Shown here: one piece after another, positions 1 to 13,573 of the stretch
Position numbering within the stretch: position 1 is the first letter of the stretch
How the letters are laid out: each line of letters starts with the position of its first letter
Origin: a virus
Lineage: Duplodnaviria; Heunggongvirae; Uroviricota; Caudoviricetes
Direction: 5' to 3' (one strand)
Length of the DNA: 21,819 bases
IMG/VR virus record: IMGVR_UViG_3300048590_001376
Program-made: the position numbers and the translations under genes
The notes under the pieces: model-generated
The model's database searches: none
Told to the model about the DNA's origin: nothing
The model's input: the letters and a program-made list of their open reading frames with translations, nothing else

Positions 1-867
1 ATGCAAACGACAACGGTTCGCATCTCAGATTTGCAAACTCATCCCCTTCAACAGCCGACGTATGGTGACCTTGCGGCTCATGAATTTGCAGCACTGAAGG
101 CAGACATCGCCCGTCGAGGAGTCCGCTCTCCGATTCACGTCACTCGGGCCGGGATGATCATCGACGGTCATCAGCGTGTTCGCGCTTGTCGCGAGCTTGG
201 AATTGAGGAGATCAGTGCCATCATCTGCGAGGAAGAGGGCCAGCCGGAGATTGATGAGAGCTTCGTTTTGGCGAATCTCGTGCGGCGTCAGCTGGACCCT
301 GTAGCCAAAGCGAAGGCCGTTCAGATGCTCGTGGACATCGAGCGTCGACGGATCAATGACGAAGATTCTCAAGAACCCGGCGATTTGCGCGATCGCATCG
401 CCAAGCATCTTGGGGGAAACATCTCGGGACGCACGGTGGATCGCCTCTTGCAGCTGGCGCGTTTACCCGCTCCGATCCATCAGGCCGTTTCAGCAGGGCA
501 TTTGCCGATGACGAAAGCCCTGCGGCTTCATCAGTGCTCGTCAGGCCAGTTGGAAATCGTCGCCAACCGCATTTCTGCGGGTGAGTCACCGCGTACTGTC
601 GTAGATTCGGTCCTTCCGCGCAAGAAGGCCGATCGACAGGAAGCCGAAGAAACGCCAGCTGTTGCGTATGCCATGCTGGTTGACTTCCTTGCCGAGAAGC
701 TGTCGTGCTTCGAGGCTCAACCGGAATCACTGGTCGGAACGGCGGGAGATCACGAAGCAACCGCCAACGTGTTGGACCGCTCAGCGCGGTTCCTGCATGT
801 GATGCGTGATCACGAGCAGGCTGCTCGCCAGCAGGCACTGCTCGATATTCAAGAGTTGCTGAGTTGA
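1..867 (+). CDS. ParB/Srx-like N-terminal domain protein with central HTH (288 aa)
   Basis: N-terminus VRISDLQTHP; ParB box GVRSPIHV...IIDGHQRVRACRELG (GxxRxxA); ANLVRRQLDPVAKAKAV; HTH-like LRDRIAKHLGGNISGRTVDRLLQL. Confidence 0.85.
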   Translation: MQTTTVRISDLQTHPLQQPTYGDLAAHEFAALKADIARRGVRSPIHVTRAGMIIDGHQRVRACRELGIEEISAIICEEEGQPEIDESFVLANLVRRQLDPVAKAKAVQMLVDIERRRINDEDSQEPGDLRDRIAKHLGGNISGRTVDRLLQLARLPAPIHQAVSAGHLPMTKALRLHQCSSGQLEIVANRISAGESPRTVVDSVLPRKKADRQEAEETPAVAYAMLVDFLAEKLSCFEAQPESLVGTAGDHEATANVLDRSARFLHVMRDHEQAARQQALLDIQELLS

Positions 868-874
868 CCCGGCT

Positions 875-887
875 GGACACTGTGTCC
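875..887. promoter_or_regulatory. Perfect palindrome GGACAC-T-GTGTCC, candidate protein-binding (parS/operator-like) site
   Basis: 6-1-6 inverted repeat in the 67-bp gap between the ParB-like gene and the next ORF. A 1-nt spacer cannot form an RNA hairpin loop, so a DNA site is more likely. Confidence 0.4.
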
Positions 888-934
888 GGAAGTGGTGTGG
901 TAGTTAAGTACCGCGTTGCAAATGTGTCGGTGAA

Positions 935-2464
935 GTGATGTCTTCCAATCCCCCTCAAACACGAACGATTGCCTACCACCGCAGCACCTGTGCTGTCTCG
1001 CTGGCTCCCGAGGACTTGCAGCGTCTCGGCGGGGCCATCACCGTTCCGAAACGCGTGCCGAGAGCAGATCCGCTTCATGGATACGATGTGGTTGAGGCAC
1101 AGGAACCTTGGCTGGGAGGTGATCGTGTTCCGAATCTTGGTTTGCGTGAATTCCTGGCCTATCGGGCGATCCAGCGGGGACTCCAATTACAGGAAGTGGC
1201 GACGAACCAAATTGCGCCACTTCCCGCCCCTGCGTGCCGCAATCAACTCCTTTGGCCGAGCTGGATTGATTTCGTCCACCAGTATGAACTGGGGTTGGTT
1301 CGCATCTCCAACCAGGTTGATGTGCCCCAGATGATTGCCGAACTTGTGATCGCTTTTCCAGGGCGACGCATCATGGTTCTCGGAAAGGTCGCAACACTTC
1401 GAAGCCACTTTGCCTCATTGATGCGTCTTCTCCCGGCCGAATTCCGCAAAAACCGTCGCATGGCATTGGTGCATGCCGGAAGGCCGCTGAGGATCGAAGA
1501 TGACCATGAGTTTCCTCGATTGATCCTCTGCACTCCGACGGTGGCAGCAGACCTCGAATCCGAAAAGTGCGACATTGTTGTCATGCTCGACGCATTCGAG
1601 TGTCTGCACGAGCGAATGGCGTGGCCCTTGATCCAAATGGATGGGCGGTTCCGCCTGTTTGGACTGTTGCCCGCCAGTCGTGCGCCGAAGCCCTACGAAG
1701 CGGCTCGACTCCGTGTGACGTTCGGGTTTCGACAGATTGATCTGCTTGGGAAGGGCCGTGTCCGTCGAGATACCTCTTACTCGCTGGTGTGCCAAAGCGG
1801 AGAGGCCCCGCAAGGATCAGTCCTGGAGCATCCCGTTGTCGGTGGTCGTCGCACTCGCCCGTCCATTGCCCCCGTCCGTGCGTATGTCCACCACCACTAT
1901 CGAAACAACATGATTGCGCGTCTCGCCCGGAAGCTCCGGGGCGGCCAGCGGATCGAGAATCCTCGGTACAGTGAGATCGCGCGTTGGTGCCGTCTCCAAG
2001 TTCAGCGGCCCATGAGTGTCATGATCGTTGTGGATCGGCTCGACCACGCGGTCCTCCTGCACGCGCTGCTCAACGACTGGCCGATAGTCGCTGAACCGTC
2101 AAATCTGGACGGCATCCCCGCAACTGTCTGTCGCTGGATCAATCGCCGTATCTCGCAGTGGCTGCCGTGCCAGATCGTGGTGGCTGATGCGTTCCGAAGG
2201 ACGAAGGGACACCAGGTGGATGTCGTGATCTGGGCCAGCGGCGGGTCGATGGCCCAAATCCCTGAGGAATGGCTCTACACCCGCGAGGACGCAGGCCATC
2301 CGCTGCTGATCGTCGACTTTGTTGATGACTTCGCCCCGGATGCTCGGCGATTGAGTCGAAAGCGTGCCCAAGCTCTCGAAACCCGCGACATTTTCCGGTT
2401 CGGTCAATCACCCGTACTTGGTCGCATCCGCCAGTTTGAACGCCAGATCGGAGGGACACGATGA
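935..2464 (+). CDS. Degenerate (probably ATPase-dead) superfamily-2 helicase-like protein (509 aa)
   Basis: SF2 motif order is retained but catalytic residues are lost: no GxGKT (GLVRISNQVDVP), LILCTPT (Ib-like), DIVVMLDAFE (in place of DExH), RLFGLLPA (III-like), RNNMIA, VMIVVDRLDHAVLL (IV-like), VDVVIWASGG, LLIVDFVDD. No QxxGR motif VI. Confidence 0.6.
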   Translation: MMSSNPPQTRTIAYHRSTCAVSLAPEDLQRLGGAITVPKRVPRADPLHGYDVVEAQEPWLGGDRVPNLGLREFLAYRAIQRGLQLQEVATNQIAPLPAPACRNQLLWPSWIDFVHQYELGLVRISNQVDVPQMIAELVIAFPGRRIMVLGKVATLRSHFASLMRLLPAEFRKNRRMALVHAGRPLRIEDDHEFPRLILCTPTVAADLESEKCDIVVMLDAFECLHERMAWPLIQMDGRFRLFGLLPASRAPKPYEAARLRVTFGFRQIDLLGKGRVRRDTSYSLVCQSGEAPQGSVLEHPVVGGRRTRPSIAPVRAYVHHHYRNNMIARLARKLRGGQRIENPRYSEIARWCRLQVQRPMSVMIVVDRLDHAVLLHALLNDWPIVAEPSNLDGIPATVCRWINRRISQWLPCQIVVADAFRRTKGHQVDVVIWASGGSMAQIPEEWLYTREDAGHPLLIVDFVDDFAPDARRLSRKRAQALETRDIFRFGQSPVLGRIRQFERQIGGTR

Positions 2465-3690
2465 GTATCAGTGGATCTCCGACACGCAGGTTTGCTGACC
2501 GCCACTTTCAGCGGTCGTGCGAACCACGCCGCAGGCGGGAGCCTTATCGGGTACTTAATCCGGCGGAATTCGACTTGGCCAAATTCGCCAATGCGGACAA
2601 TCTCTACGTGGCGTTCCAGCAATTGGTGGACGAGGGTGGTCACGGCGCGGGGATTGATGGCTTTCGACCCGAGCATTTTTCCGATGCGGAACTCTCTCCC
2701 ATCCTGCGGAGTGTCTCGAAGGCTTTCGAGAAAGAGGACGATCAACCGATCGCTTATCGTCCTTATCCGACTCGCCGAATGGAAATTCCCAAGTCGGCGA
2801 CCAAGGTCCGTACCTTGGCTTTGCAGCGGTTCACCGATCGAGCAGTAGCGAAAGCTCTGATGAATTGCCTAACGCCCTTCTGGGAGCGGGTGATTAGACG
2901 ACGCAGTGTCTGGCAGATTTATGCCCAGCTCGACCGCGAGATTCGCCGTCGTCGAATCTACGTGCTGGCGATCGACGACATCCAAGATTGCTTTCCGAAC
3001 GCACCTCGCGAGGAAGTCCTTTACTGGCTCTTCCGTCATATCAATAACGAGGAATTGCTCGATCTCATCGAACAAATCGTCCTTGGCCATGAAGGCCAAG
3101 ATCAATTGACCGGCTTGGATCAAGGTTCGCCGTCCAGCCCGGTCGCGGTAGACGTGTTGCTCTACCACAGACTCGACAGCGAGTTGGAAACACTGTCGAG
3201 GAACACGCCGCAGTACCGCTACGTCGATAACCTGACGTATCTGTGCCGCGACGTCCGTGAGGCTGCCAGTGTGCTCGCGATTGCGCGGGAACTTGTTGAA
3301 CGCATCGGTTTCCGACTTAAAGGAACCGACGGTGATCCACAAGACCTTCGCGATCCGAGTTACAACCGAGTGATTCTGGGATTGATCCCGACATGGCAGA
3401 ACGGCCGTCTGTCTTTCTCGATCCCCCAGAAAGCCTTCGACCATTTGGAAGAAGGTTTCCGCTTTGCGAATTCAGCCGCGAGACCCTTGGACAACGCTCT
3501 TGGGCGTTGTCGAGGCTGGCTAAATTCACTCGGACCTGCCCTCACGAACGCAGTAACCCCGGAAGTAGTCAACCGTGTCGTCGACATGGCGCGCCTGGAA
3601 GGTTTCCGAAATGTGACCCGCAAGGACATGTTTCTGACAGCCGAGAAAGCGCGCAGAGCCTGGTGCCGAGTATTGGAAGGTGCCCGATGA
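2461..3690 (+). CDS. Group-II-intron-like reverse transcriptase with YVDN active-site motif, no endonuclease domain (409 aa)
   Basis: RT0 GAGIDG; RT1/2 KVRTLALQRFTDRAVAKAL; motif A YVLAIDDIQDCF; motif B GLDQGSPSSP; motif C YRYVDNL (3220-3231 TACGTCGATAAC = YVDN); RT7 ILGL; thumb-like CRGWLNSL. Start overlaps the upstream stop (ATGA). Confidence 0.9.
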   Translation: MSISGSPTRRFADRHFQRSCEPRRRREPYRVLNPAEFDLAKFANADNLYVAFQQLVDEGGHGAGIDGFRPEHFSDAELSPILRSVSKAFEKEDDQPIAYRPYPTRRMEIPKSATKVRTLALQRFTDRAVAKALMNCLTPFWERVIRRRSVWQIYAQLDREIRRRRIYVLAIDDIQDCFPNAPREEVLYWLFRHINNEELLDLIEQIVLGHEGQDQLTGLDQGSPSSPVAVDVLLYHRLDSELETLSRNTPQYRYVDNLTYLCRDVREAASVLAIARELVERIGFRLKGTDGDPQDLRDPSYNRVILGLIPTWQNGRLSFSIPQKAFDHLEEGFRFANSAARPLDNALGRCRGWLNSLGPALTNAVTPEVVNRVVDMARLEGFRNVTRKDMFLTAEKARRAWCRVLEGAR

Positions 3691-3699
3691 ATATGTCTA

Positions 3700-4215
3700 C
3701 GGATACGACCATTGGACCTGACATCGTTTCCTCCGAGACGTTTGTTGGCATTCCTCTTACTACTCCTTCTCGGTGCTGCCGCACACCGACGCCCCTCCGT
3801 TTCCGCGAGGGAATGTGGAAGAGTTATTCCACGAGTTTTTCGATGTTCCAGCGCGAACCAACGATTCAGCAAGGGAGTGAACGTCTGATGTAAGGCAACT
3901 CAGGTTTCTGACAGTTCAGATAGCCATCCGACAGATTGCAGGGCAGTCGCTGAAGGTGCTGGATCGTTCGATTCTCCACGTGGGTGGAGCGGACAATACC
4001 AAGCTGCCGCCGAGGAGGTTCCGTTTCCACGCAGTCACCTGGAATCGGTCACCACTTCGGAGGTTGGCTCTCAACCAGCACCCGCAAACCTCGTTCACAC
4101 ACCAGCCCATAATGGGTTGGCTTCACATTCATCCGTCATCGCTGCCAGGGAGTGCTTTGATGTTGGGCGCGAAGGAAATTCGATCGTGTCTCGCAAGAGA
4201 AAGCACCAATGGACC
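3700..4215 (+). ncRNA. Candidate structured non-coding RNA downstream of the RT
   Basis: Stems found by eye: 3749-3756/3807-3815; 3770-3775/3784-3789; 3815-3820/3827-3832; 11-bp 3860-3870/3958-3968; 3907-3911/3916-3920; 3974-3979/3984-3989; 4102-4109/4113-4120; TCTC-GCAA-GAGA GNRA hairpin 4189-4200. G.U pairs and the GNRA loop favour the + strand. Boundaries are approximate. Confidence 0.5.
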
Positions 4216-4242
4216 GCCACGCTTGTCCCGTGGGGTACACTG

Positions 4243-4383
4243 ATGGCGAACCCCAATCATCGGCATTTTGGCAAGACGCGGGAGCAACGCATCGACGTCG
4301 CAATTGCCATCATCCGCCAGACGCTGGTCGATTGGCTGGCCGATTTTACGGTGGTTGAGATGCCAGAAGTGCATCTCGTCTAA
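4243..4383 (+). CDS. Small hypothetical protein (46 aa, MANPNHRHFGK...) directly upstream of the recombinase
   Basis: ATG at 4243 inside ORF 4117-4383; protein-like amphipathic sequence; followed by hairpin AGCCGA-N7-TCGGCT. Confidence 0.4.
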   Translation: MANPNHRHFGKTREQRIDVAIAIIRQTLVDWLADFTVVEMPEVHLV

Positions 4384-4455
4384 GCCGACTGGCAATCGGC
4401 TGACGCATACCAGATCAATCAGATTGGGACCATCAACGAAGGAGTCAGCAACAGC

Positions 4456-6153
4456 ATGCGCAAGAGCAACGCCCAGATCATGAAGGCGAAGGATGCGGTC
4501 ACGCGAAAGTGTGGCCTTTACGGACGTGTCTCGACTTTGCGTCAAGCCAAGGTCGAAGAAGGTGGGTTGGACACCCAGTTCAGCTGCATGGAGAAGACGG
4601 TCGATTTCGAGAACGAGAAAGCGATCGGCGAAACATGGGAAATCGTCGACCGCTATCGGGAGGAGGGGCGGTCCGGGAAGGATCTGGAACGTCCTGAGTT
4701 CAAGCGGTTGATGGCAGACGTCCAGAGCGGTCGAATCAACACCGTGATCGTCTACAAGATCGATCGGATTACCCGCTCACTCCGCGACTTCTACACGCTT
4801 TGGGAGACGTTCGAGGAGTATGACGTCCAGTTCGTGTCGTTGTACGAGAAGTTTGACACGACAACGGCTGTCGGGCGAGCCATGCTGAAGCTCATTCTTG
4901 TCTTCGCAGAGCTTGAACGCGAACAGACGGCGGAGCGAACCGCCGCAACGATGCAGCATCGTGCCGAGCAGGGCCTGTGGAATGGCGGAGTTCGGCTGGG
5001 CTACGATCTCGATCCGAACAACAAGGGGGTATTGAAGGTCAATCCGGACGAGAAGGTCATCGTTGTGAACGATTTCTTCAAGAAGTGCCTCGAACTCGGA
5101 TCAGCAGGCAAAGTGGTCCAGCACCTGGCGAAGCAGGGGATTCGACGAAAGCAGTACACCAATCGCAACGGGAAGGTCGTCGGCGGAGGACCCTACTACA
5201 AGCAACCGGTCATGAACGTCCTCACGGACAAAGTCTATCTCGGCATGATCGTCCACAACGGCCAGGCATATCCCGGCCAGCACGAAGCGATCGTGGAGGA
5301 AGACCTGTTCATGCAGGTTCAGGATTTGATCCGGCGAAACTCCGAAACCCGCACGAATGCACTGGCTCAGGAAGAACACGTTTTCCTGCTGCAAGGACTC
5401 GCCCGATGCGGGAAGTGCGGCAGTTTCATGACTCCCAAATGGAGTTCCGGACGAGGTGGCGTGCGGAACTTCTACTACTGCTGCACCCGGCAGTCGCACA
5501 GCATGGGGACCGAATGCACGACTCCCTACGTGCCCGCCGGAACGATTGAGAATTTCGTGGTTGAACAGATCAGCGCGTGGGCCAAGGACCGTGACGAGAT
5601 CGAGCGGGCGGTTCAGGCGGCCTGCAAGTTTCGGGAGATTGAAGTCACCAACCTGACGCAGGAGCTGAGTGCAATCCGTGCCCGCTTACGCGAGACGCAG
5701 GCCGGATTGAGCCAACTGGTGACCGCGATTCAATCAGGAAAGAGCTTCCGAGCTGTGGAAGAACGGATGGAGGCTCTCGAACAGGACCGGACTGCGCTCG
5801 AAGAACGCATCAACCGCCTGGAACTGGAACGGAGCAGCAAAGAGCAGGAGACGCTGTCGTCGGACGTGATCGCCGAGACCTATTGCGATTTCCCGTTCAT
5901 CGTCAGCCGCTTGCGGCAGGAGGGCAACCTTCACGGCCTGAAAGACCTGCTCGCCTGCTATATCGCGGCGATTGACATCCATCAGGAAGAGGAGGACCCG
6001 AGCAGCGGCCACATGAACATCATGCTGTTCGAGGAGGAGCTTCCAGGCTGGAAACCCCATTTGACGCAACTCAATGGGGCGCAAGAAAAAACGCTCACGT
6101 TCCAGCCGTTAACCGGCTGGAACTGTGAGCGTGTGGAAAGGCTCCCCGACTAG
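4456..6153 (+). CDS. Large serine recombinase (resolvase + recombinase + zinc-ribbon + coiled-coil domains, 565 aa)
   Basis: Catalytic YGRVST; EEGRSGKDLERPEFKRLM; VYKIDRITRS; FAELEREQTAERT; Zn ribbon CGKCG...YYCC...C; coiled coil; GAAGGAG RBS upstream. Confidence 0.97.
   Translation: MRKSNAQIMKAKDAVTRKCGLYGRVSTLRQAKVEEGGLDTQFSCMEKTVDFENEKAIGETWEIVDRYREEGRSGKDLERPEFKRLMADVQSGRINTVIVYKIDRITRSLRDFYTLWETFEEYDVQFVSLYEKFDTTTAVGRAMLKLILVFAELEREQTAERTAATMQHRAEQGLWNGGVRLGYDLDPNNKGVLKVNPDEKVIVVNDFFKKCLELGSAGKVVQHLAKQGIRRKQYTNRNGKVVGGGPYYKQPVMNVLTDKVYLGMIVHNGQAYPGQHEAIVEEDLFMQVQDLIRRNSETRTNALAQEEHVFLLQGLARCGKCGSFMTPKWSSGRGGVRNFYYCCTRQSHSMGTECTTPYVPAGTIENFVVEQISAWAKDRDEIERAVQAACKFREIEVTNLTQELSAIRARLRETQAGLSQLVTAIQSGKSFRAVEERMEALEQDRTALEERINRLELERSSKEQETLSSDVIAETYCDFPFIVSRLRQEGNLHGLKDLLACYIAAIDIHQEEEDPSSGHMNIMLFEEELPGWKPHLTQLNGAQEKTLTFQPLTGWNCERVERLPD
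6086..6132 (-). terminator. Intrinsic terminator-like hairpin (18-bp stem, 1-nt bulge, 5-nt loop) followed by a T-run on the minus strand
   Basis: ACGCTCAC-GTTCCAGCCG (6091-6108), loop TTAAC, CGGCTGGAAC-T-GTGAGCGT (6114-6132); A-run 6086-6091 reads TTTTTT on the minus strand; begins 7 nt beyond the tRNA-like 3' end. Confidence 0.75.
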
Positions 6154-6166
6154 GACTCGAACCTAG
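6140..6166 (-). other. tRNA 3'-end fragment (T-arm + acceptor 3' strand; tRNA-Asn or tRNA-Gln type), probable attachment (att) core
   Basis: Minus strand CTAGG-TTCGAGT-CCTAG-TCGGGGA-G-CC gives a perfect T-stem/loop, A72, G73 and CC. The sequence 5' of the T-arm shows no anticodon or D arm, so this is not a full tRNA. Confidence 0.85.
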
Positions 6167-6197
6167 TACGTCATGGATGGCCGTACACTTCAACTGG

Positions 6198-6686
6198 TCA
6201 TTCATCCGCATCGACTATGCCGTTCGCAACTGCCCAAACAATCAGGCCGGCGCTGCTGCGTGCGCCGATCTTCTTCCGCAGAATCAGGCGGAAGGACTCG
6301 ACGGTTTTCACGCTGATACGCAGCCGCCGTGCCGTTTGTTTGATCGTTTCGTCGCGGCACAGGGCCACTAGGACTTGCCGCTCTCGCGGTGTCAGCTCTG
6401 GAGCTGATGCCAGTCGCCTCTGCCAGTGCGCCACAAACAGGTCGCCGACGTGCTCGACCACTCCGCTGAACAGGAAGCCGTCTAGCTTCAGCGTGCGCAC
6501 ACAATACGCGACCGCACGCTGCTCGAACTGGAAATTGGCAATCGCGAGTTTGAAATCCGCCAGATCGCGAGCGTCGATCCAGGACCAGACGGAGGTTCCG
6601 GCAACCCGCTGGTGCAGTGAGCGATTGCTTACCAATAGAATCTTTCCCGTGCGATCCAGCAGTGTTATGCCCCTCATGCTCAACAT
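6198..6686 (-). CDS. PAS-like sensor domain + LuxR/NarL-family HTH transcriptional regulator (162 aa)
   Basis: N-terminal GITLLDRTGKILLVSN...SWIDARD resembles the PAS consensus; C-terminal LTPRERQVLVAL...TIKQTARRLRISVKTVESFRLILRKKIG is a classic LuxR HTH. Confidence 0.85.
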   Translation of the reverse strand: MLSMRGITLLDRTGKILLVSNRSLHQRVAGTSVWSWIDARDLADFKLAIANFQFEQRAVAYCVRTLKLDGFLFSGVVEHVGDLFVAHWQRRLASAPELTPRERQVLVALCRDETIKQTARRLRISVKTVESFRLILRKKIGARSSAGLIVWAVANGIVDADE

Positions 6687-6721
6687 TGCTCAAAGCTGCC
6701 CCCTAGAAGATGCTTGTTCGG

Positions 6722-6739
6722 CTCAGGGTTTTCCCTGAG
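6722..6739. promoter_or_regulatory. 18-bp palindrome CTCAGGG-TTTT-CCCTGAG between divergent regulator and integrase genes (operator or terminator)
   Basis: Perfect 7-bp arms, 35 bp upstream of the LuxR-type start. It is followed by TTTT on +, so a terminator reading is also possible. Confidence 0.45.
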
Positions 6740-6898
6740 TTTTCGCCGCTGCTGTTCGTCGAGTGTTACTGAATAGGGTTAGTCGGTCGCGATGGACGGC
6801 CGCCCACTATGGAAGTGGACTGCCAAAGGATGGTGAAGGAACAAGTCGCATGATGCCCCACGGATGGTCCCCGCAGGCTTTCGTGAGAGGGACCAGTT

Positions 6899-7729
6899 AT
6901 GACACTGGGCGACTTTGTGGCGTTGTACGCCAGCCAACGTGATATCGAGGCGGGAACCGTCGAACAGTTGCGGTACGCCGTCTTGTCGTTCGACCGATGG
7001 CTGAAGCGCGCTGCGACGCTACATGACTTATCGGATAAAAATGTCAACAACTGGATTATTGCCCGCATTGAGGCGGGCATTGCGCGAAAGACCGTCAAGG
7101 GTCAGCGGGGGGCAATCCTTAGCCTCTGGAGAGCTGCCACCGAGGAAGGGATGCTCGACACTGAGCCGAGCAAGATCAGGCCCGTCAAAGTGCCGATCGT
7201 CATGCCGGTCGCCTGGCAGAAGTCTCAGATCAAGTCGCTCTTGAAGGCTGCCGAAGCGGCGCCGGGCAGCTTTGCTTGCGGCATTAAGCGATCGAGCTAT
7301 CTGACTGCGTGGTTGCTCGTGGGCTACTACAGCGGATTGCGGCCGGGTGATCTGCTTGGCCTGACGAGCGACATGATCGATGACGACAGCCAGCTCGTGA
7401 AGACCCAGAAGAAGACTGGCTGGCCGGTTGTTCGGCCGTTGCCATCTGACGCCATGGCGGCCCTGGCCGCGATCAACTTTCGCGATCGTTCGCAGATTTT
7501 CCCTGTCCCTAAAAAGACGCTCGACGACTGGTGGAAGTGGCTCAAGCGCATTGCCGGCGTGCCGGGCTCGCCGAAGTGGATGCGGCGATCTGGCGCTACG
7601 CACTGCGAAGCGGAGCACCCCGGCTCGGCGATGCAGTTTCTGGGCCACAAAACCGCCGGATTGGCGTACAAACACTACGTCGATCCCAAGCAGCTCTGCC
7701 ACAAGCCGCCCTGTCCGCCGCCGCTGTAG
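6899..7729 (+). CDS. Tyrosine recombinase/integrase lacking an arm-binding domain (276 aa)
   Basis: Core-binding domain at the N-terminus; catalytic set SGLR(R), KTQKKT(K), KWMRRS (K-x-x-R for H-x-x-R), LGH, KHY(Y); RBS GAGAGGGA. Confidence 0.92.
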   Translation: MTLGDFVALYASQRDIEAGTVEQLRYAVLSFDRWLKRAATLHDLSDKNVNNWIIARIEAGIARKTVKGQRGAILSLWRAATEEGMLDTEPSKIRPVKVPIVMPVAWQKSQIKSLLKAAEAAPGSFACGIKRSSYLTAWLLVGYYSGLRPGDLLGLTSDMIDDDSQLVKTQKKTGWPVVRPLPSDAMAALAAINFRDRSQIFPVPKKTLDDWWKWLKRIAGVPGSPKWMRRSGATHCEAEHPGSAMQFLGHKTAGLAYKHYVDPKQLCHKPPCPPPL

Positions 7730-7741
7730 GCGAAATTGCGC

Positions 7742-7770
7742 TTGCTCTCGCTTGCGCCAGTGTCAAGAAT
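7742..7770 (+). promoter_or_regulatory. Possible sigma70-type promoter for the downstream moron gene
   Basis: TTGCTC-17 bp-AAGAAT in a relatively AT-rich gap; weak consensus match. Confidence 0.2.
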
Positions 7771-7812
7771 TGAATGCAGATGGATTAAATTCAGTATTGC
7801 CGGAGTCCCGCC

Positions 7813-8256
7813 ATGACACGCGCCCTCTTTCTGACTGTCGCCCTGACCATTGCCATCGCTTTCAGCTTCCATGCGGCTGCGGCCGTGGAGGTCGCTGACC
7901 TAAAATGGAGCGAATTTGTCCGCGACTGCGGCGTTAAGGCGCAGGAATCAAACAAGGTTCGATCGCAGAGCGTTTTCAAAAGCAAGTACGAGGGCAAGGT
8001 GATCGGCTGGTTTGGCACGGTCAACATGGTTCAAGAGCAGCCGTTGGGCGATGGTTATCTGATTAGCGTCACCATGAGACCCTCTGAGGCTCCAGTGACG
8101 CATTCGGACCTGAAATTATTCGTGCCGGAAAAACTCAAGGACCGCGTTCTGCCGCTCGATAAAGGCAACAAGATCGCCTTCATCGCCAGGATCACCACGC
8201 AAGGCGGCAGTATTCTCGATCACCAACTCGACTGCCTGCTGTTTGAGAAACGCTAG
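7813..8256 (+). CDS. Secreted hypothetical protein, possible OB-fold (147 aa)
   Basis: Signal peptide MTRALFLTVALTIAIAFSFHAAAA; KYEGKVIGWFGTV...KGNKIAFIARI pattern is reminiscent of secreted OB-fold proteins. Confidence 0.7.
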   Translation: MTRALFLTVALTIAIAFSFHAAAAVEVADLKWSEFVRDCGVKAQESNKVRSQSVFKSKYEGKVIGWFGTVNMVQEQPLGDGYLISVTMRPSEAPVTHSDLKLFVPEKLKDRVLPLDKGNKIAFIARITTQGGSILDHQLDCLLFEKR

Positions 8257-8498
8257 CGAGCCCCCCGCATCCACTTCTCGACGAACTCGCGGTATCGGCC
8301 AAGGCATTCGGGGTGAATCAAATTCTCAGCGAGTGCGTAGATGACCTTGCTGCCGTTGTCGACCGATTCGCCATGCACGATCGCGCCACGCATGCCAAGC
8401 AGTCGCATTTCTCGCCACTTGCCAAACACCATGGCGCGGACGACATAGCAACCCATTGGCTCGCGCTGACGAAACCGCCTTGGCAACCAGAGCATCAT
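8253..8498 (-). CDS. Hypothetical protein (81 aa), last gene of the minus-strand operon
   Basis: ATG at 8498 overlaps the upstream stop (ATGA); start moved from the ORF-track 8543. Confidence 0.55.
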   Translation of the reverse strand: MMLWLPRRFRQREPMGCYVVRAMVFGKWREMRLLGMRGAIVHGESVDNGSKVIYALAENLIHPECLGRYREFVEKWMRGAR

Positions 8499-9256
8499 CG
8501 AAAGCCCTCCATGTCTTTGACCCATTCCATTGCCAGCCGACAATCCATGACGCCGCCAGGATTAGCCAGGCTGGAGTGCTTCTCGCCGACATGCTGCACG
8601 AAGCTCGGCGAGTGATACCACATGGCATACTGATTCTCCGACAGAAACTTCGCGAACCAGAAATCAGCCGTAACGACGCTCGCACCGGAATCCGGCGGGG
8701 CCTGCAACAGGTGTTCACCGATCTCGCGCGGAATAACATAGCATTGAGCGCCGAGCTTCATCTGCTTGATGCCGCGATGCAAATGCCAGCCGCGACGCTC
8801 GGCCATTTGGCGGCAAGTGAATAGGTTCACGACTTCCTTAGCCTCCAAGACCGGCCTTTGCCGCTCCAGCCACGATCGCAAATTGGCGGCAATCGCAATA
8901 TCGTCCTGCGCCACCAGTAGGTGCGTGGCGCGTGGCGACATGTCGATCAAGTAGCCGATCGTCGATAGCAGATTCGGCCAGGGGCCGGCAGGGCCGTCGT
9001 TGAAGTGCAGCGGGTAGCCGCGGCATGTCGTCGGCAGGCTGTCGAGCGTGTCGGGCGGGTCGAGTACGGTGTCGCCGGATAGTCCCTCCTCGTCCGCGAC
9101 GGCTGTTTCCAGCAATTCGTCAGAAAAATGCCCCGCCTCGGCGCAGATTGTCAGCTCGGGCCAGCCGGCAGCCTTGATATTACTGATCGTTTCCCACAGG
9201 TACGACGGCTCGCGCGGCGCCGTCGTGACGCCCACTGCCCAAGTTATAGCTCGCAT
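8495..9256 (-). CDS. GT-A fold glycosyltransferase-like protein (253 aa)
   Basis: Start MRAITWAVGVTTAPRE with RBS GGGAGAG; LLVAQDD (DxD-like); GAQCYVIPR; HSPSFVQHVG. Confidence 0.7.
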   Translation of the reverse strand: MRAITWAVGVTTAPREPSYLWETISNIKAAGWPELTICAEAGHFSDELLETAVADEEGLSGDTVLDPPDTLDSLPTTCRGYPLHFNDGPAGPWPNLLSTIGYLIDMSPRATHLLVAQDDIAIAANLRSWLERQRPVLEAKEVVNLFTCRQMAERRGWHLHRGIKQMKLGAQCYVIPREIGEHLLQAPPDSGASVVTADFWFAKFLSENQYAMWYHSPSFVQHVGEKHSSLANPGGVMDCRLAMEWVKDMEGFR

Positions 9257-12480: not shown

Positions 12481-13001
12481 TTGACACCCCGCATTCCCAG
12501 GCTAATTGGACCATGCGCGTGACCGCGCTCGCGGCCAGTCAGGCGATGCACTTCACGAAAGCCGGCGGCCTCGAAGCATCGCCGCAAGTGCCTCTCGTCA
12601 AAGCAGGCGCGGTGCCAGTTCGGATCGGGGCCGTAGGTGAAGAGTCGTCCGTTCACCCATGTCATCACGTCGCCATCGTCATTGTGCTTTCGCCAGTTGT
12701 CGGCAGGCTCGCCGTCGAGATAGGCGCTGACGATCACGGCGAAGTTGGGCACCCAGATTTCCAGCGGAGCGCAGGGTTTCAAGATGCGATGTACTTCGCG
12801 CAGTGCATCGATCGTGCGGAACCAGGGAACGTGTTCGAGGACGTGGCTGCCGTACACCAGATCGAACGTCTCGTCATTGAACGGCAGGCGATCCTCGCCC
12901 CAGTTGGCCACGAAAACGATATGCGGCCCAGGTACGCAATCGAGCGTGATCCAGTCCGGGCCGAGCTTGTTGGGGCCTGGTCCAATTTCCAGTCGCTTCA
13001 T
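12477..13001 (-). CDS. Class I SAM-dependent methyltransferase (type 11-like, 174 aa)
   Basis: MKRLEIGPGP; LPFNDETFDLVYGSHVLEHV; EVHRILKP. ATG at 13001 overlaps the HNH stop (ATGA). Confidence 0.85.
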   Translation of the reverse strand: MKRLEIGPGPNKLGPDWITLDCVPGPHIVFVANWGEDRLPFNDETFDLVYGSHVLEHVPWFRTIDALREVHRILKPCAPLEIWVPNFAVIVSAYLDGEPADNWRKHNDDGDVMTWVNGRLFTYGPDPNWHRACFDERHLRRCFEAAGFREVHRLTGRERGHAHGPISLGMRGVK

Positions 13002-13573
13002 GCCGCAGCCACCCTTTTGCGACTGATTTTTGTAAGCCACGACCAATTTCTTCCCGACATAATCGAATCAACGGAGCCACGCGACACATGAAGTTCAGCA
13101 GCAATGGACGAGCGGCTCTCCCCATCATTGCAACGTCTAACTATTTCCAATACTCGGCATTCATTTAGCCTTGCACTACCGTTCTCACTTCCACGCAAAA
13201 CCACACGATTAAAACGTCCGTGGTCTTTTTTGTCTTGCTCGTTGTCTGATTGCGTTCCCCAAGCAAGGTTGTCCGGCATGTTGTTGGCTCTATTTCCATC
13301 AATATGCCGACACTGCAACCCTTGTGGCCTCGGTCCATGGAACGCTGTTGCGATAATCCAATTGACCAGTACGTGACATCGCTCGCCTTTGTCATTCAAG
13401 ATATCAGTTTCGATGTATCCACTAACTTTGTTTCTGTGACCAACGATTTGCCTTAAGTTATCTCGCTTCCGTCGCATTGGCCCTTTAGTCCAACGTGTCC
13501 ATAGTGTCCCATCGCCTCTAGCGAAGTACCCTGCAAATCCTGAAACTTCACGAATGTCTGCTTCGCTAAACAT
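12998..13573 (-). CDS. HNH homing-type endonuclease with C-terminal HTH (191 aa)
   Basis: IIATAFHGPRPQGLQCRHIDGNRANNMPDNLAWGTQSDNEQD; C-terminal GESRSSIAAELHVSRGSVDSI; lower GC than flanks (26/60 GC at 13141-13200 vs 36/60 at 12661-12720). Confidence 0.9.
   Translation of the reverse strand: MFSEADIREVSGFAGYFARGDGTLWTRWTKGPMRRKRDNLRQIVGHRNKVSGYIETDILNDKGERCHVLVNWIIATAFHGPRPQGLQCRHIDGNRANNMPDNLAWGTQSDNEQDKKDHGRFNRVVLRGSENGSARLNECRVLEIVRRCNDGESRSSIAAELHVSRGSVDSIMSGRNWSWLTKISRKRVAAA

Follow-up and report, generated by a model that had tools for sequence, protein, structure and literature searches.

Organization of the locus

The window, which is the whole stretch of DNA analysed here (21,819 nucleotides), contains the features collected in Table 1. 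An earlier, sequence-only inspection (the first-pass annotation) had described five parts, namely a ParB-like gene, a dead SF2 helicase, a YVDN reverse transcriptase (RT), a structured RNA and a large serine recombinase, and all five were found at the positions given. Within this arrangement, positions 935-3860 are a single copy of a conserved three-part module composed of the helicase-fold protein P509, the RT and a noncoding RNA (ncRNA) of approximately 100 nt, the co-occurrence of which persists across deep divergence.

Table 1. Features of the locus and the evidence on which each assignment is based
Feature	Position	Strand	Evidence or remark
ParB/Srx-like DNA-binding protein, 288 aa, DGHQR motif and HTH	1-867	+	ParB_N and TIGR00180, below cut-off
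P509, SF2-helicase fold without ATPase motifs (pseudo-helicase)	935-2464	+	AF2, Foldseek, family alignment
RT	2461-3690	+	RVT_1
C/U pyrimidine-rich tract before the hairpins	3745-3772	+	Same place in nearly all relatives
SL1, 4-5 bp stem G(Y)GC / GC(R)C, UNCC loop	3773-3784	+	UA<->CG compensatory changes (MAFFT and CM alignments)
SL2, CCCUC...GAGGG here, 5-9 bp in relatives	3793-3811	+	Helices 2 and 3 of the CM alignment, 84-92% paired, compensatory change in 4/5 pairs
SL3, GUGGAA / UUCCAC, 6-nt loop	3815-3832	+	98% paired, compensatory change in 5/6 pairs
Single-stranded box GCGA(G/A)CC, near-invariant; next base here is A (...CCA)	3853-3860	+	3' edge of the conserved module
SD-like GGGAG, then ATG-TAA start-stop mini-ORF	3873-3893	+	Recurs in 11/18 loci
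Large serine recombinase	4456-6153	+	Resolvase, Recombinase and Zn_ribbon_recom, all above cut-off

The five-part unit proposed by the first-pass annotation does not recur; only the combination of P509, RT and RNA is constant. The serine recombinase is peculiar to this contig, stands beside none of approximately 25 independent P509-RT loci, and belongs to the host integrative element, not to the RT module. The ParB-like open reading frame falls below the cut-offs of the two models that detect it (ParB_N, 22.5 bits against 26.3, E 1e-4; TIGR00180, 44.9 bits against 58.45, E 1e-11), no ParA partner was seen in L020, and a ParB-like gene lies directly upstream of the module in 9 of 17 loci and is absent from the other 8. 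A MerR-like gene recurs in 7 of the 17. Where the ParB-like and MerR-like genes are 92-95% identical, P509 and RT reach only 53-60%, as in L037 with its ParB-like identity of 95%; by such comparisons, these two genes behave as the backbone of the carrier element, outside the RT core. At the 3' end of the recombinase there is a fragment resembling a tRNA T-arm, and a search for a second att or tRNA-fragment copy marking the ends of the L020 element found no repeat within 21.5 kb.

The reverse transcriptase and its active site

The motif A Asp and the motif B QGSP of the RT are intact, and motif C reads YVDN (RYVDNL), as first annotated. Across the family, motif C takes the form [YFW]xD[ND], and D256 and N257 do not vary among 21 relatives. 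All of 42 RT sequences compared retain the Asp of motif A, the QGSP and the leading Asp of motif C, which reads DN in 37 and DD in 5, the two types being interleaved on the tree. Together with the retention of the catalytic residues, this interleaving looks like selection acting on the active site. An Asn at the second position of motif C could leave the polymerase weak or dead. Active mononegavirus polymerases carry GDN in place of GDD.

The nearest solved sequences to the RT family profile are group II intron RTs (1e-24), with G2L4 at 2e-8, and the AF2 model of the RT aligns with the GsI-IIC RT at a TM of 0.61. The first-pass annotation had set the RT apart from the intron, DGR, retron and CRISPR types, and this separation was borne out. 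With the group II maturase model TIGR04416 it scores 90.4 bits, far short of the required 300; ribozyme RNA (domains I-VI) produced no Rfam match in positions 1-6200 at the gathering threshold, nor when the limit was relaxed to E<=1; and a coupled protein gene rather than intron RNA lies upstream of the RT open reading frame. The retron model St85 reaches 32.7 bits where 235 are required, with no Rfam retron RNA and no VTG triplet in the RT translation. Direct repeats of at least 30 nt above approximately 74% identity, which could serve as a DGR TR/VR pair, do not occur in the window, no Avd-like open reading frame was found, and neither Cas domains (window and neighbours) nor a repeat array were detected.

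The pseudo-helicase P509 and its pairing with the RT

P509 is 509 aa long as an open reading frame, with the ATG at 938 as the likelier start, in agreement with a 508-aa database entry, and matched no family in Pfam, NCBIfam or PADLOC. Its AF2 model (pLDDT 89, pTM 0.87) comprises an N-terminal beta domain and the two RecA-like domains by which SF2 helicases are recognized, and the top Foldseek matches are XPB, UvsW, FANCM and Mtr4, at a probability of 1.0. In the family alignment, neither the GxGKT/S of Walker A nor the DExx of Walker B is present in P509 or in distant members; no Lys or Glu occurs among the invariant or near-invariant columns, and the motif II position reads LDA. The description as a dead SF2 helicase is thus well founded, and since Walker A and B are missing throughout the superfamily, P509 is not a motor by the canonical mechanism. 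Homologues of P509 number 1608 representatives within 1.84e9 proteins, and its nearest look-alikes are ResIII/DEAD helicases of phages and mobile elements, including fusions with AEP primases.

This RT was found 3' of every P509-like gene checked (approximately 35 loci) wherever the sequence allowed, including P509-like matches as remote as E 1e-11. The translational coupling first noticed at the ATGA of 2461-2464 is present, as the start and stop codons of the two genes overlap there, with GGAGGG 6 nt upstream, and an overlap of 4 nt or 1 nt is conserved among relatives. In the AFDB entry A0A517XV55, a 998-aa 'reverse transcriptase', residues 32-494 match P509 (E 2.6e-22), and this protein is, by its sequence, a natural P509-RT fusion. 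Co-folding of P509 with the RT, a prediction run on alignments built for this analysis, gave an ipSAE of 0.74 against 0.01 for the best control; of 80 solved complexes 58 attained that mark, as did 2 of 110 mismatched pairs. The runs share at least 53% of contacts with a partner pLDDT of at least 83, and the predicted interface places the N-terminal beta domain of P509 on the fingers and thumb of the RT. This controlled co-fold supports binding between the two modelled proteins.

The structured RNA downstream of the RT

The ncRNA normally lies 40-90 nt 3' of the RT stop codon and consists of three hairpins supported by covariation, together with an invariant GCGA(G/A)CC box. The hairpin-rich noncoding stretch of the first-pass annotation can be upheld in part: of the 765-nt spacer between RT and recombinase, only approximately 130 nt are conserved, the conserved and covarying part being about 3745-3860 by comparison with relatives, and the remainder shares nothing but a 59-nt patch (4098-4155) with the nearest relative having downstream sequence. 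The duplication of a tripartite motif at 3775-3820 and 4003-4044, which was considered as a DRT2-like repeat unit, is missing from relatives, with no second copy in 17 other loci. A long-range helix between the C/U tract and a purine tract past the box was also rejected, scoring no better than composition-matched shuffles (z -1.8 to +1.3).

The covariance model (CM) places the RNA directly 3' of the RT 19 times, and in 2 further genomes. In the resulting alignment, 94% of cells are paired and 13 of 16 pairs show compensatory changes, counts that derive partly from a model-fitted alignment; none of 500 shuffles matched these pairing values, slid controls were 22-62% paired, and the covariation of SL1 and SL3 is visible in a plain MAFFT alignment too. 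SL1 is followed by an A/C-rich single strand. The SL3 counterpart in the nearest relative, L024, is CUGGAA/UUCCAG, and in the window SL3 is followed by a U-run and also scores as terminator-like. The box, which often reads CCA, lies 72-85 nt from the start of SL1 in 18 loci and approximately 120 nt from it in L001 and L019. Nucleotide homology stops exactly at the box, both between the window and L024 and between L006 and L008, two copies in one genome. Beyond it, 11 of 18 loci have an SD with a start and a stop within 6 codons, where shuffling gives an expectation of 1.6 (0/1000), in a test devised post hoc.

In L059, an orphan ncRNA lies 2.2 kb upstream instead of 3' of the RT, which means that the picture of an RNA acting in cis as a 3' UTR is not universal. 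Among distant loci of the YxDD type, some with little downstream sequence, the CM found no such RNA in L055-L057 and none 3' of the RT in L059 and L060.

Distribution and carrier elements

The module recurs widely in the phylum Planctomycetota, where P509 is present in 9 of 401 sampled genomes, and its distribution is patchy, multi-copy and mosaic. One genome holds at least 4 module loci, some of them broken, and copies within the same genome are only 82-89% identical. L006 and L033 carry 5'-truncated copies that retain the 3' RNA, and the comparison of L037 with the window shows a sharp recombination breakpoint inside P509; neither target-site duplications nor defined 5' ends of the module were found. 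The modules are borne by integrative elements that encode integrases, TraG/VirD4, DUF927, DUF1580 and transposases, and the earlier view of the RT as cargo of such an element agrees with what is seen in the window, L059 and L060. DNA-binding regulators (ParB-like, MerR-like and XRE-like) are the recurrent neighbours. No recurrent nuclease, TIR, SLATT or similar effector adjoins the module among the neighbours examined.

Neither a Pfam family nor a PADLOC class was found for the P509-RT pairing, and literature searches on YVDN, on G2L with helicases and on Planctomycetes RTs did not return it, with publication elsewhere still possible; the RT apparently represents a branch not previously described.

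Proposed function and alternative explanations

The module is best explained as a ribonucleoprotein (RNP) cargo of Planctomycetota integrative elements, probably serving in conflict with phages or between elements, an explanation for which our confidence is evenly balanced. The RNA would be bound by P509 and the RT joined in a 1:1 complex, and initially in cis, where it makes up the 3' end of the mRNA that encodes both. P509 would act as a nucleic-acid clamp or sensor, not as a motor, while the RT would still be a polymerase, with an Asp/Asn swap at the second position of motif C and the other palm motifs kept, and would probably copy a short RNA-defined template beside the hairpins. Like DRT and retron systems, the whole module would probably serve its element in conflicts with phages or competing elements. 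Such a defence role is plausible; as no PADLOC model is specific to the module, the term is used by analogy only. An RNP of the helicase-fold protein, RT and RNA was one of two readings offered by the first-pass annotation, and it fits the obligatory pairing, the fusion, the conserved overlap, the co-fold and the covariation.

Alternatively, the RT of the YVDN clade may be non-polymerising and, in complex with the dead P509, may bind RNA and regulate the element's expression or life cycle. The complex could, for example, attach to the 3' UTR of its own operon and to the SD/start-stop site next to it. Such a regulator would account for the changes at catalytic positions in both proteins, for the RNA within the 3' UTR of the operon beside the conserved SD and mini-ORF, and for the DNA-binding regulators among the neighbours. 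It is considered unlikely, however, given the universally kept motif A, QGSP and first motif C residues, the interleaved DD and DN types and the precedent of GDN polymerases.

The second reading of the first-pass annotation, in which the module fills a Rep/primase-helicase slot, is disfavoured and judged distinctly unlikely. The RT and the helicase-like protein would here make or prime the DNA of the excised element with ParB as partner, in keeping with the ParB-like gene immediately upstream in about half of the loci, the phage and AEP-fused helicases most similar to P509, and the recombinase adjoining the module in the window. Against this, P509 lacks ATPase motifs superfamily-wide, a DUF927 gene of the primase-helicase type already adjoins the module in L059, and ParB is backbone, not core, missing from many loci and seen with no ParA.

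Little chance is given to a non-intron retroelement, in which copying of the P509-RT transcript would start at a 3' recognition structure that ends in ...GCGAGCC(A) and the resulting copies would be inserted, with P509 as RNA-binding protein and the ParB-like protein as a nuclease that might supply the nick. Homology between copies that ends exactly at the box, often at CCA, several loci in one genome, the truncated copies of L006 and L033 and the orphan ncRNA of L059 would suit such a process, but the divergence of copies inside one genome, the missing target-site duplications and 5' ends, and a mosaic breakpoint expected of ordinary recombination speak against it, and cassette replacement also yields truncated remnants. 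More broadly, and with only a slim prospect, the module may be a retroelement that copies itself, or a device that maintains a genome by means of an RT, of a kind not known in bacteria: the RNA-binding pseudo-helicase and the YVDN RT would start DNA synthesis at the same 3' structure, a process that, if true, would resemble LINE 3' UTRs, CCA-ended fungal retroplasmid transcripts or a telomerase-like short template and would leave truncated copies and orphan RNAs like those mentioned. A group II intron whose RNA has decayed beyond recognition can hardly be credited, despite the sequence and fold relationship, in view of the missing intron RNA, the low maturase score, an operon partner and a different RNA conserved across deep divergence, and evident purifying selection on a family of approximately 1600 clusters.

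Intron-free bacterial RTs have repeatedly shown unexpected chemistry, as in DRT2, DRT3, DRT9, DRT10 and G2L4. The branch described here is large, its partner protein amounting to approximately 1600 clusters at 50% identity, and unusual in its obligate motorless helicase-fold partner, its covarying RNA with an invariant 7-nt box and the Asp/Asn switch in its catalytic triad. It raises the questions of what a DN-type RT produces, what a dead helicase is for, and whether the module acts in defence, element maintenance or mobility; because the module is compact (approximately 3 kb) and clonable, questions of function are directly testable.

Comparison with known systems

P509 shares the two-RecA fold and an N-terminal domain with SF2 helicases of the XPB, UvsW and phage ResIII types, but it lacks the Walker A Lys, the DExx Glu and the arginine-finger motif, and an RT invariably accompanies it or is fused to it. 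The RT itself is closest to group II and G2L RTs (GsI-IIC, G2L4) with no intron RNA, as judged by profile and fold rather than by a reference tree, and G2L RTs likewise lack intron RNA (PMC8632793). It differs from them in having a pseudo-helicase as obligate partner, a dedicated ncRNA of three hairpins and a YVDN motif C, whereas G2L4 works alone, in DNA repair; no association of G2L RTs with a helicase-like gene was found in the G2L literature searched.

Class 2 DRT systems (DRT2, DRT9, DRT10/UG17) and retrons resemble the module in that their RT works with a structured ncRNA of its own, in some cases joined by a partner protein, and in being compact, patchy and borne by mobile elements. The best specific PADLOC match of the RT is UG17 (4e-13, 46.9 bits), which does not exceed the other RT models and lies far behind both PDLC01136, the generic RT model (90.4 bits), and the group II model. 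DRT10 has a SLATT effector and an ncRNA upstream of the RT (10.64898/2026.04.29.721553), whereas the RNA of the module is usually downstream and no SLATT was seen among those neighbours, a part of the total, that were scanned with Pfam. In contrast to retrons, the module has no msr/msd.

A eukaryotic parallel, drawn as analogy and not as homology, is offered by the spliceosomal pair Prp8-Brr2, in which a protein derived from a group II RT and an SF2 helicase with an inactive cassette act together on structured RNA. Prp8 has lost the polymerase residues altogether, whereas the RT of the module keeps most of them.

Organization of the locus

The anatomy of the locus is well supported as a predicted 1:1 complex of a pseudo-helicase (P509) and a reverse transcriptase (RT) with a dedicated structured RNA (ncRNA), a cargo module of integrative elements in Planctomycetota. 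The five ORFs and regions described in the first-pass annotation were all present where it had placed them. The RT start codon overlaps the P509 stop codon as ATGA, with GGAGGG located 6 nt upstream of the RT start, and initiation at ATG 938 gives the 508-aa form of P509 found in databases. On the 174-kb metagenome contig that includes the window, the region 5' of the window contains a divergent MerR-like gene, p186 (186 aa), a PD-(D/E)XK nuclease, and numerous ORFs that match no family.

Features of the window and their coordinates
Feature	Coordinates	Strand	Remarks
ParB/Srx-like protein	1-867	+	ParB_N and TIGR00180 matches, both below cut-off; DGHQR motif
P509, 509 aa	935-2464	+	no Pfam, NCBIfam or PADLOC family
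RT, 409 aa	2461-3690	+	RVT_1
ncRNA hairpin SL1	3773-3784	+	
ncRNA hairpin SL2	3793-3811	+	
ncRNA hairpin SL3	3815-3832	+	
GCGA(G/A)CC box	3853-3859	+	
Mini-ORF	3873-3893		SD-like tract, ATG-TAA
Large serine recombinase	4456-6153	+	all three defining domains
Tyrosine-type recombinase-like gene	6899-7729		matches below cut-off; located just past the serine recombinase and a GerE/LuxR-type gene
HNH endonuclease with HTH domains	12998-13573	-	within the glycan operon; lowest-GC part of the window (0.51)
Glycan operon	remainder of window	-	

The second recombinase suggests that two elements lie side by side. The end of the serine recombinase gene overlaps a long hairpin (window 6038-6267, corresponding to 15101-15330 of L020, the locus from the window's own contig), together with a sequence resembling, in reverse complement, the T-arm and acceptor 3' end of a tRNA. 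These features agree with the earlier idea of an att site. ARAGORN found no tRNA at 6038-6267, and no second copy of the fragment was present in the 21.5 kb of L020 searched.

The pseudo-helicase P509

The AF2 model of P509, based on a 27-sequence alignment (pLDDT 89, pTM 0.87), predicts an N-terminal beta domain followed by two RecA-like domains, for which the top solved matches in Foldseek are XPB, UvsW, FANCM, and Mtr4 (probability 1.0 each), while its neighbours in the ESM Atlas are phage ResIII/DEAD helicases of ~450-500 aa. The alignment contains no Lys or Glu among its invariant or near-invariant columns and has LDA at the position of motif II. Very distant members likewise lack Lys and Glu in such columns. 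The initial description of a dead SF2 helicase is thus confirmed, and the loss of the ATPase motifs is ancestral to the family. When 1.84 billion representatives were searched with the family profile, 1608 matched at E<=1e-3, of which 377 matched at E<=1e-30; almost all are ~500 aa long. The few with a name are listed as "hypothetical protein" and come from Planctomycetota, Thalassoglobus among them.

The reverse transcriptase

The nearest relatives of the RT by sequence are group II intron RTs, with TIGR04416 scoring 90 bits against a 300-bit cut-off and the family profile matching solved group II intron RTs at 1e-24, Cas6-RT-Cas1 at 7e-15, and G2L4 at 2e-8. The predicted fold points in the same direction, the AF2 model (pLDDT 84.7) aligning with GsI-IIC RT at TM 0.61 across fingers, palm, and thumb. 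A search of window 1-6200 with Rfam, relaxed to E<=1, gave neither an intron or retron RNA nor any other, and neither TR/VR repeats nor Cas genes were found, consistent with the first-pass annotation, which had noted an RT devoid of intron, DGR, retron, and CRISPR hallmarks. The best specific PADLOC class is UG17/DRT10, a weak match (4e-13); the hallmarks of DRT10 are a SLATT effector and an ncRNA located upstream (10.64898/2026.04.29.721553), neither of which was found here, the SLATT search covering the neighbours scanned with Pfam. The protein is therefore an intron-less, group-II-like RT.

Its motif C reads RYVDNL, with D256 and N257 invariant in 21 relatives. Among 42 family RTs, all retain the catalytic Asp of motif A; in motif C, 37 carry DN and five carry DD (L051, L053, L054, L055, and L060). 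With the most distant member as root, the tree has DD forms at its base, followed by L059 and L018 with DN, L060 with DD, and a DN crown, so that the two states are interleaved. A switch between Asp and Asn by a single transition, in a palm that is otherwise conserved, speaks for a working active site rather than decay. In L055, a distant YADD-type member (5492-9219, minus strand), a 159-aa ORF lies between the P509-like gene and the RT, which is 586 aa long and has a weak RNase H-like C-terminal match (E 9e-4).

Pairing of P509 with the RT

Wherever sequence permits, P509 and the RT are same-strand neighbours in the first 37 loci, and a 4-nt or 1-nt overlap between them is conserved across relatives. 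P509-like genes occurred in 9 of 401 sampled Planctomycetota genomes; all of these genes, including matches as weak as E 1e-11, precede an RT of the same family. A natural fusion also exists: the top AFDB cluster match to P509 has 998 aa and carries the annotation reverse transcriptase, and its residues 32-494 align to P509 (E 2.6e-22). Co-folding, which had been proposed as a check, gave an ipSAE of 0.74 against 0.01 for the best control, with at least 53% of contacts in common between runs and partner pLDDT of at least 83; in the benchmark, 58 of 80 solved complexes attained the ipSAE mark, compared with 2 of 110 mismatched pairs. The prediction supports binding of P509 to the RT, placing the P509 N-terminal beta domain (residues 39-54) against RT residues 66-102, with further contacts from the RT thumb and C-terminus. 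No P509-RT-like complex is known to have been solved, so this outcome is unlikely to stem from the model's memory.

The structured RNA and the sequence beyond it

The ncRNA layout recurs 40-90 nt past the RT stop, and farther in L010 and L011, where a tandem repeat is inserted, in the order C/U-rich tract, SL1 (G(Y)GC, UNCC loop, GC(R)C), A/C-rich linker, SL2, SL3 (GUGGGA/UCCCAC), a variable 20-30 nt, and the near-invariant box, often followed by A. The inserted array consists of ~8-9-nt units (GGTCTTAAG / GGTCTCAAG) over ~150 nt (L010 3023-3180 and L011 9877-10030), both loci being copies from one MAG. A covariance model built on six sequences detects the ncRNA immediately 3' of the RT at 19 sites, and also in two additional genomes. 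In the model-fitted alignment on which the counts rest, 94% of cells are paired and compensatory changes occur in 13 of 16 pairs, values reached in 0 of 500 shuffles, with slid partners 22-62% paired; a plain MAFFT alignment already shows covariation in SL1 and SL3. The hairpin-rich spacer noted at first thus contains real covarying hairpins, but conservation covers only ~130 nt of its 765 nt; a duplicated motif proposed at 4003-4044 was not found in relatives, and the proposed long-range helices fall in the non-conserved part.

Homology between the window and L024, its nearest relative with downstream sequence (RT identity 77%), spans the RT to the box and ends there, as it does between L006 and L008, two copies in one genome; the conserved unit therefore has its 3' edge at the box. 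Just past it, in window 3860-4155 and L024 2158-2462, the two are at first unrelated over a similar length (238 vs 246 nt) and then share a 59-nt patch of 80% identity (window 4098-4155), within which a short ORF, MGW...PSSLPGSA, may start.

Module and carrier element

Clustering of the neighbours at 17 independent loci placed a ParB-like gene directly upstream in nine, a MerR-like gene in seven, and an XRE-like HTH gene in four, with no effector-like gene recurring beside the module. The serine recombinase was seen only in the window's contig among the fetched loci, and the proposed five-part synteny does not hold. The window and L037 share 90-98% identity over p186, ParB, and the first ~40 P509 codons, followed by a sharp fall to ~55-60% at window ~1054; ParB and MerR thus belong to a conserved backbone of the element, and diverged P509-RT cassettes enter this backbone by recombination. 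The carriers of L059 (tyrosine integrase, TraG/VirD4, DUF927, DUF1580, excisionase-like HTH) and L060 (large ParB_N protein, DUF1580, transposases) are plainly mobile elements, and one complete genome holds at least four loci, among them broken or truncated ones. A pair of ~291-aa and ~81-aa genes without a family (L020 2285-3522, also in L004, L009, and L016; 56-79% identity), located at a variable distance on either side of the module, may itself constitute a small mobile unit.

Possible functions and relation to known systems

A role in conflict against phages or rival elements is favoured, given the analogy with RT-ncRNA systems and the patchy, mosaic, multi-copy, and element-borne distribution of the module; no recognisable effector was found at module loci. 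That the module instead acts as an RNA-binding pseudo-enzyme regulator is unlikely. A replication or priming module, in which the RT and helicase-like protein would occupy the Rep/primase-helicase slot beside ParB as first suggested, is disfavoured and quite improbable, in that P509 lacks motor motifs, L059 already has its own DUF927 gene, and ParB belongs to the element backbone. A true retroelement with the box as its 3' end is also quite improbable.

Several observations bear on these rival readings. In L033, a full P509-RT-ncRNA copy is directly followed by a 5'-truncated RT fragment of another lineage (L033 11624-12434), 206 aa long and beginning near motif B, which has a second ncRNA copy of its own (32 bits). 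L006 retains RT and RNA, with P509 reduced to its C-terminal 203 aa. L059 has no ncRNA after its RT and carries an orphan ncRNA (4733-4832, 47.5 bits), complete with the C/U tract, the three hairpins, and the box, just past a broken DDE transposase and 2.2 kb upstream of P509. Finally, an SD-like purine tract, a start, and a stop after 0-5 further codons lie 10-30 nt past the box in 11 of 18 loci (the window, L002, L004, L005, L009, L012, L026, L027, L029, L033, and L036), against ~1.6 of 18 expected from shuffles in a test devised after the pattern had been seen.

PADLOC 2.0, Pfam, and NCBIfam contain no model for P509 or its RT class, and full-text literature searches returned no paper on their pairing. 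The P509-RT-ncRNA module is placed here among domesticated group-II-like RT modules that have their own RNA.
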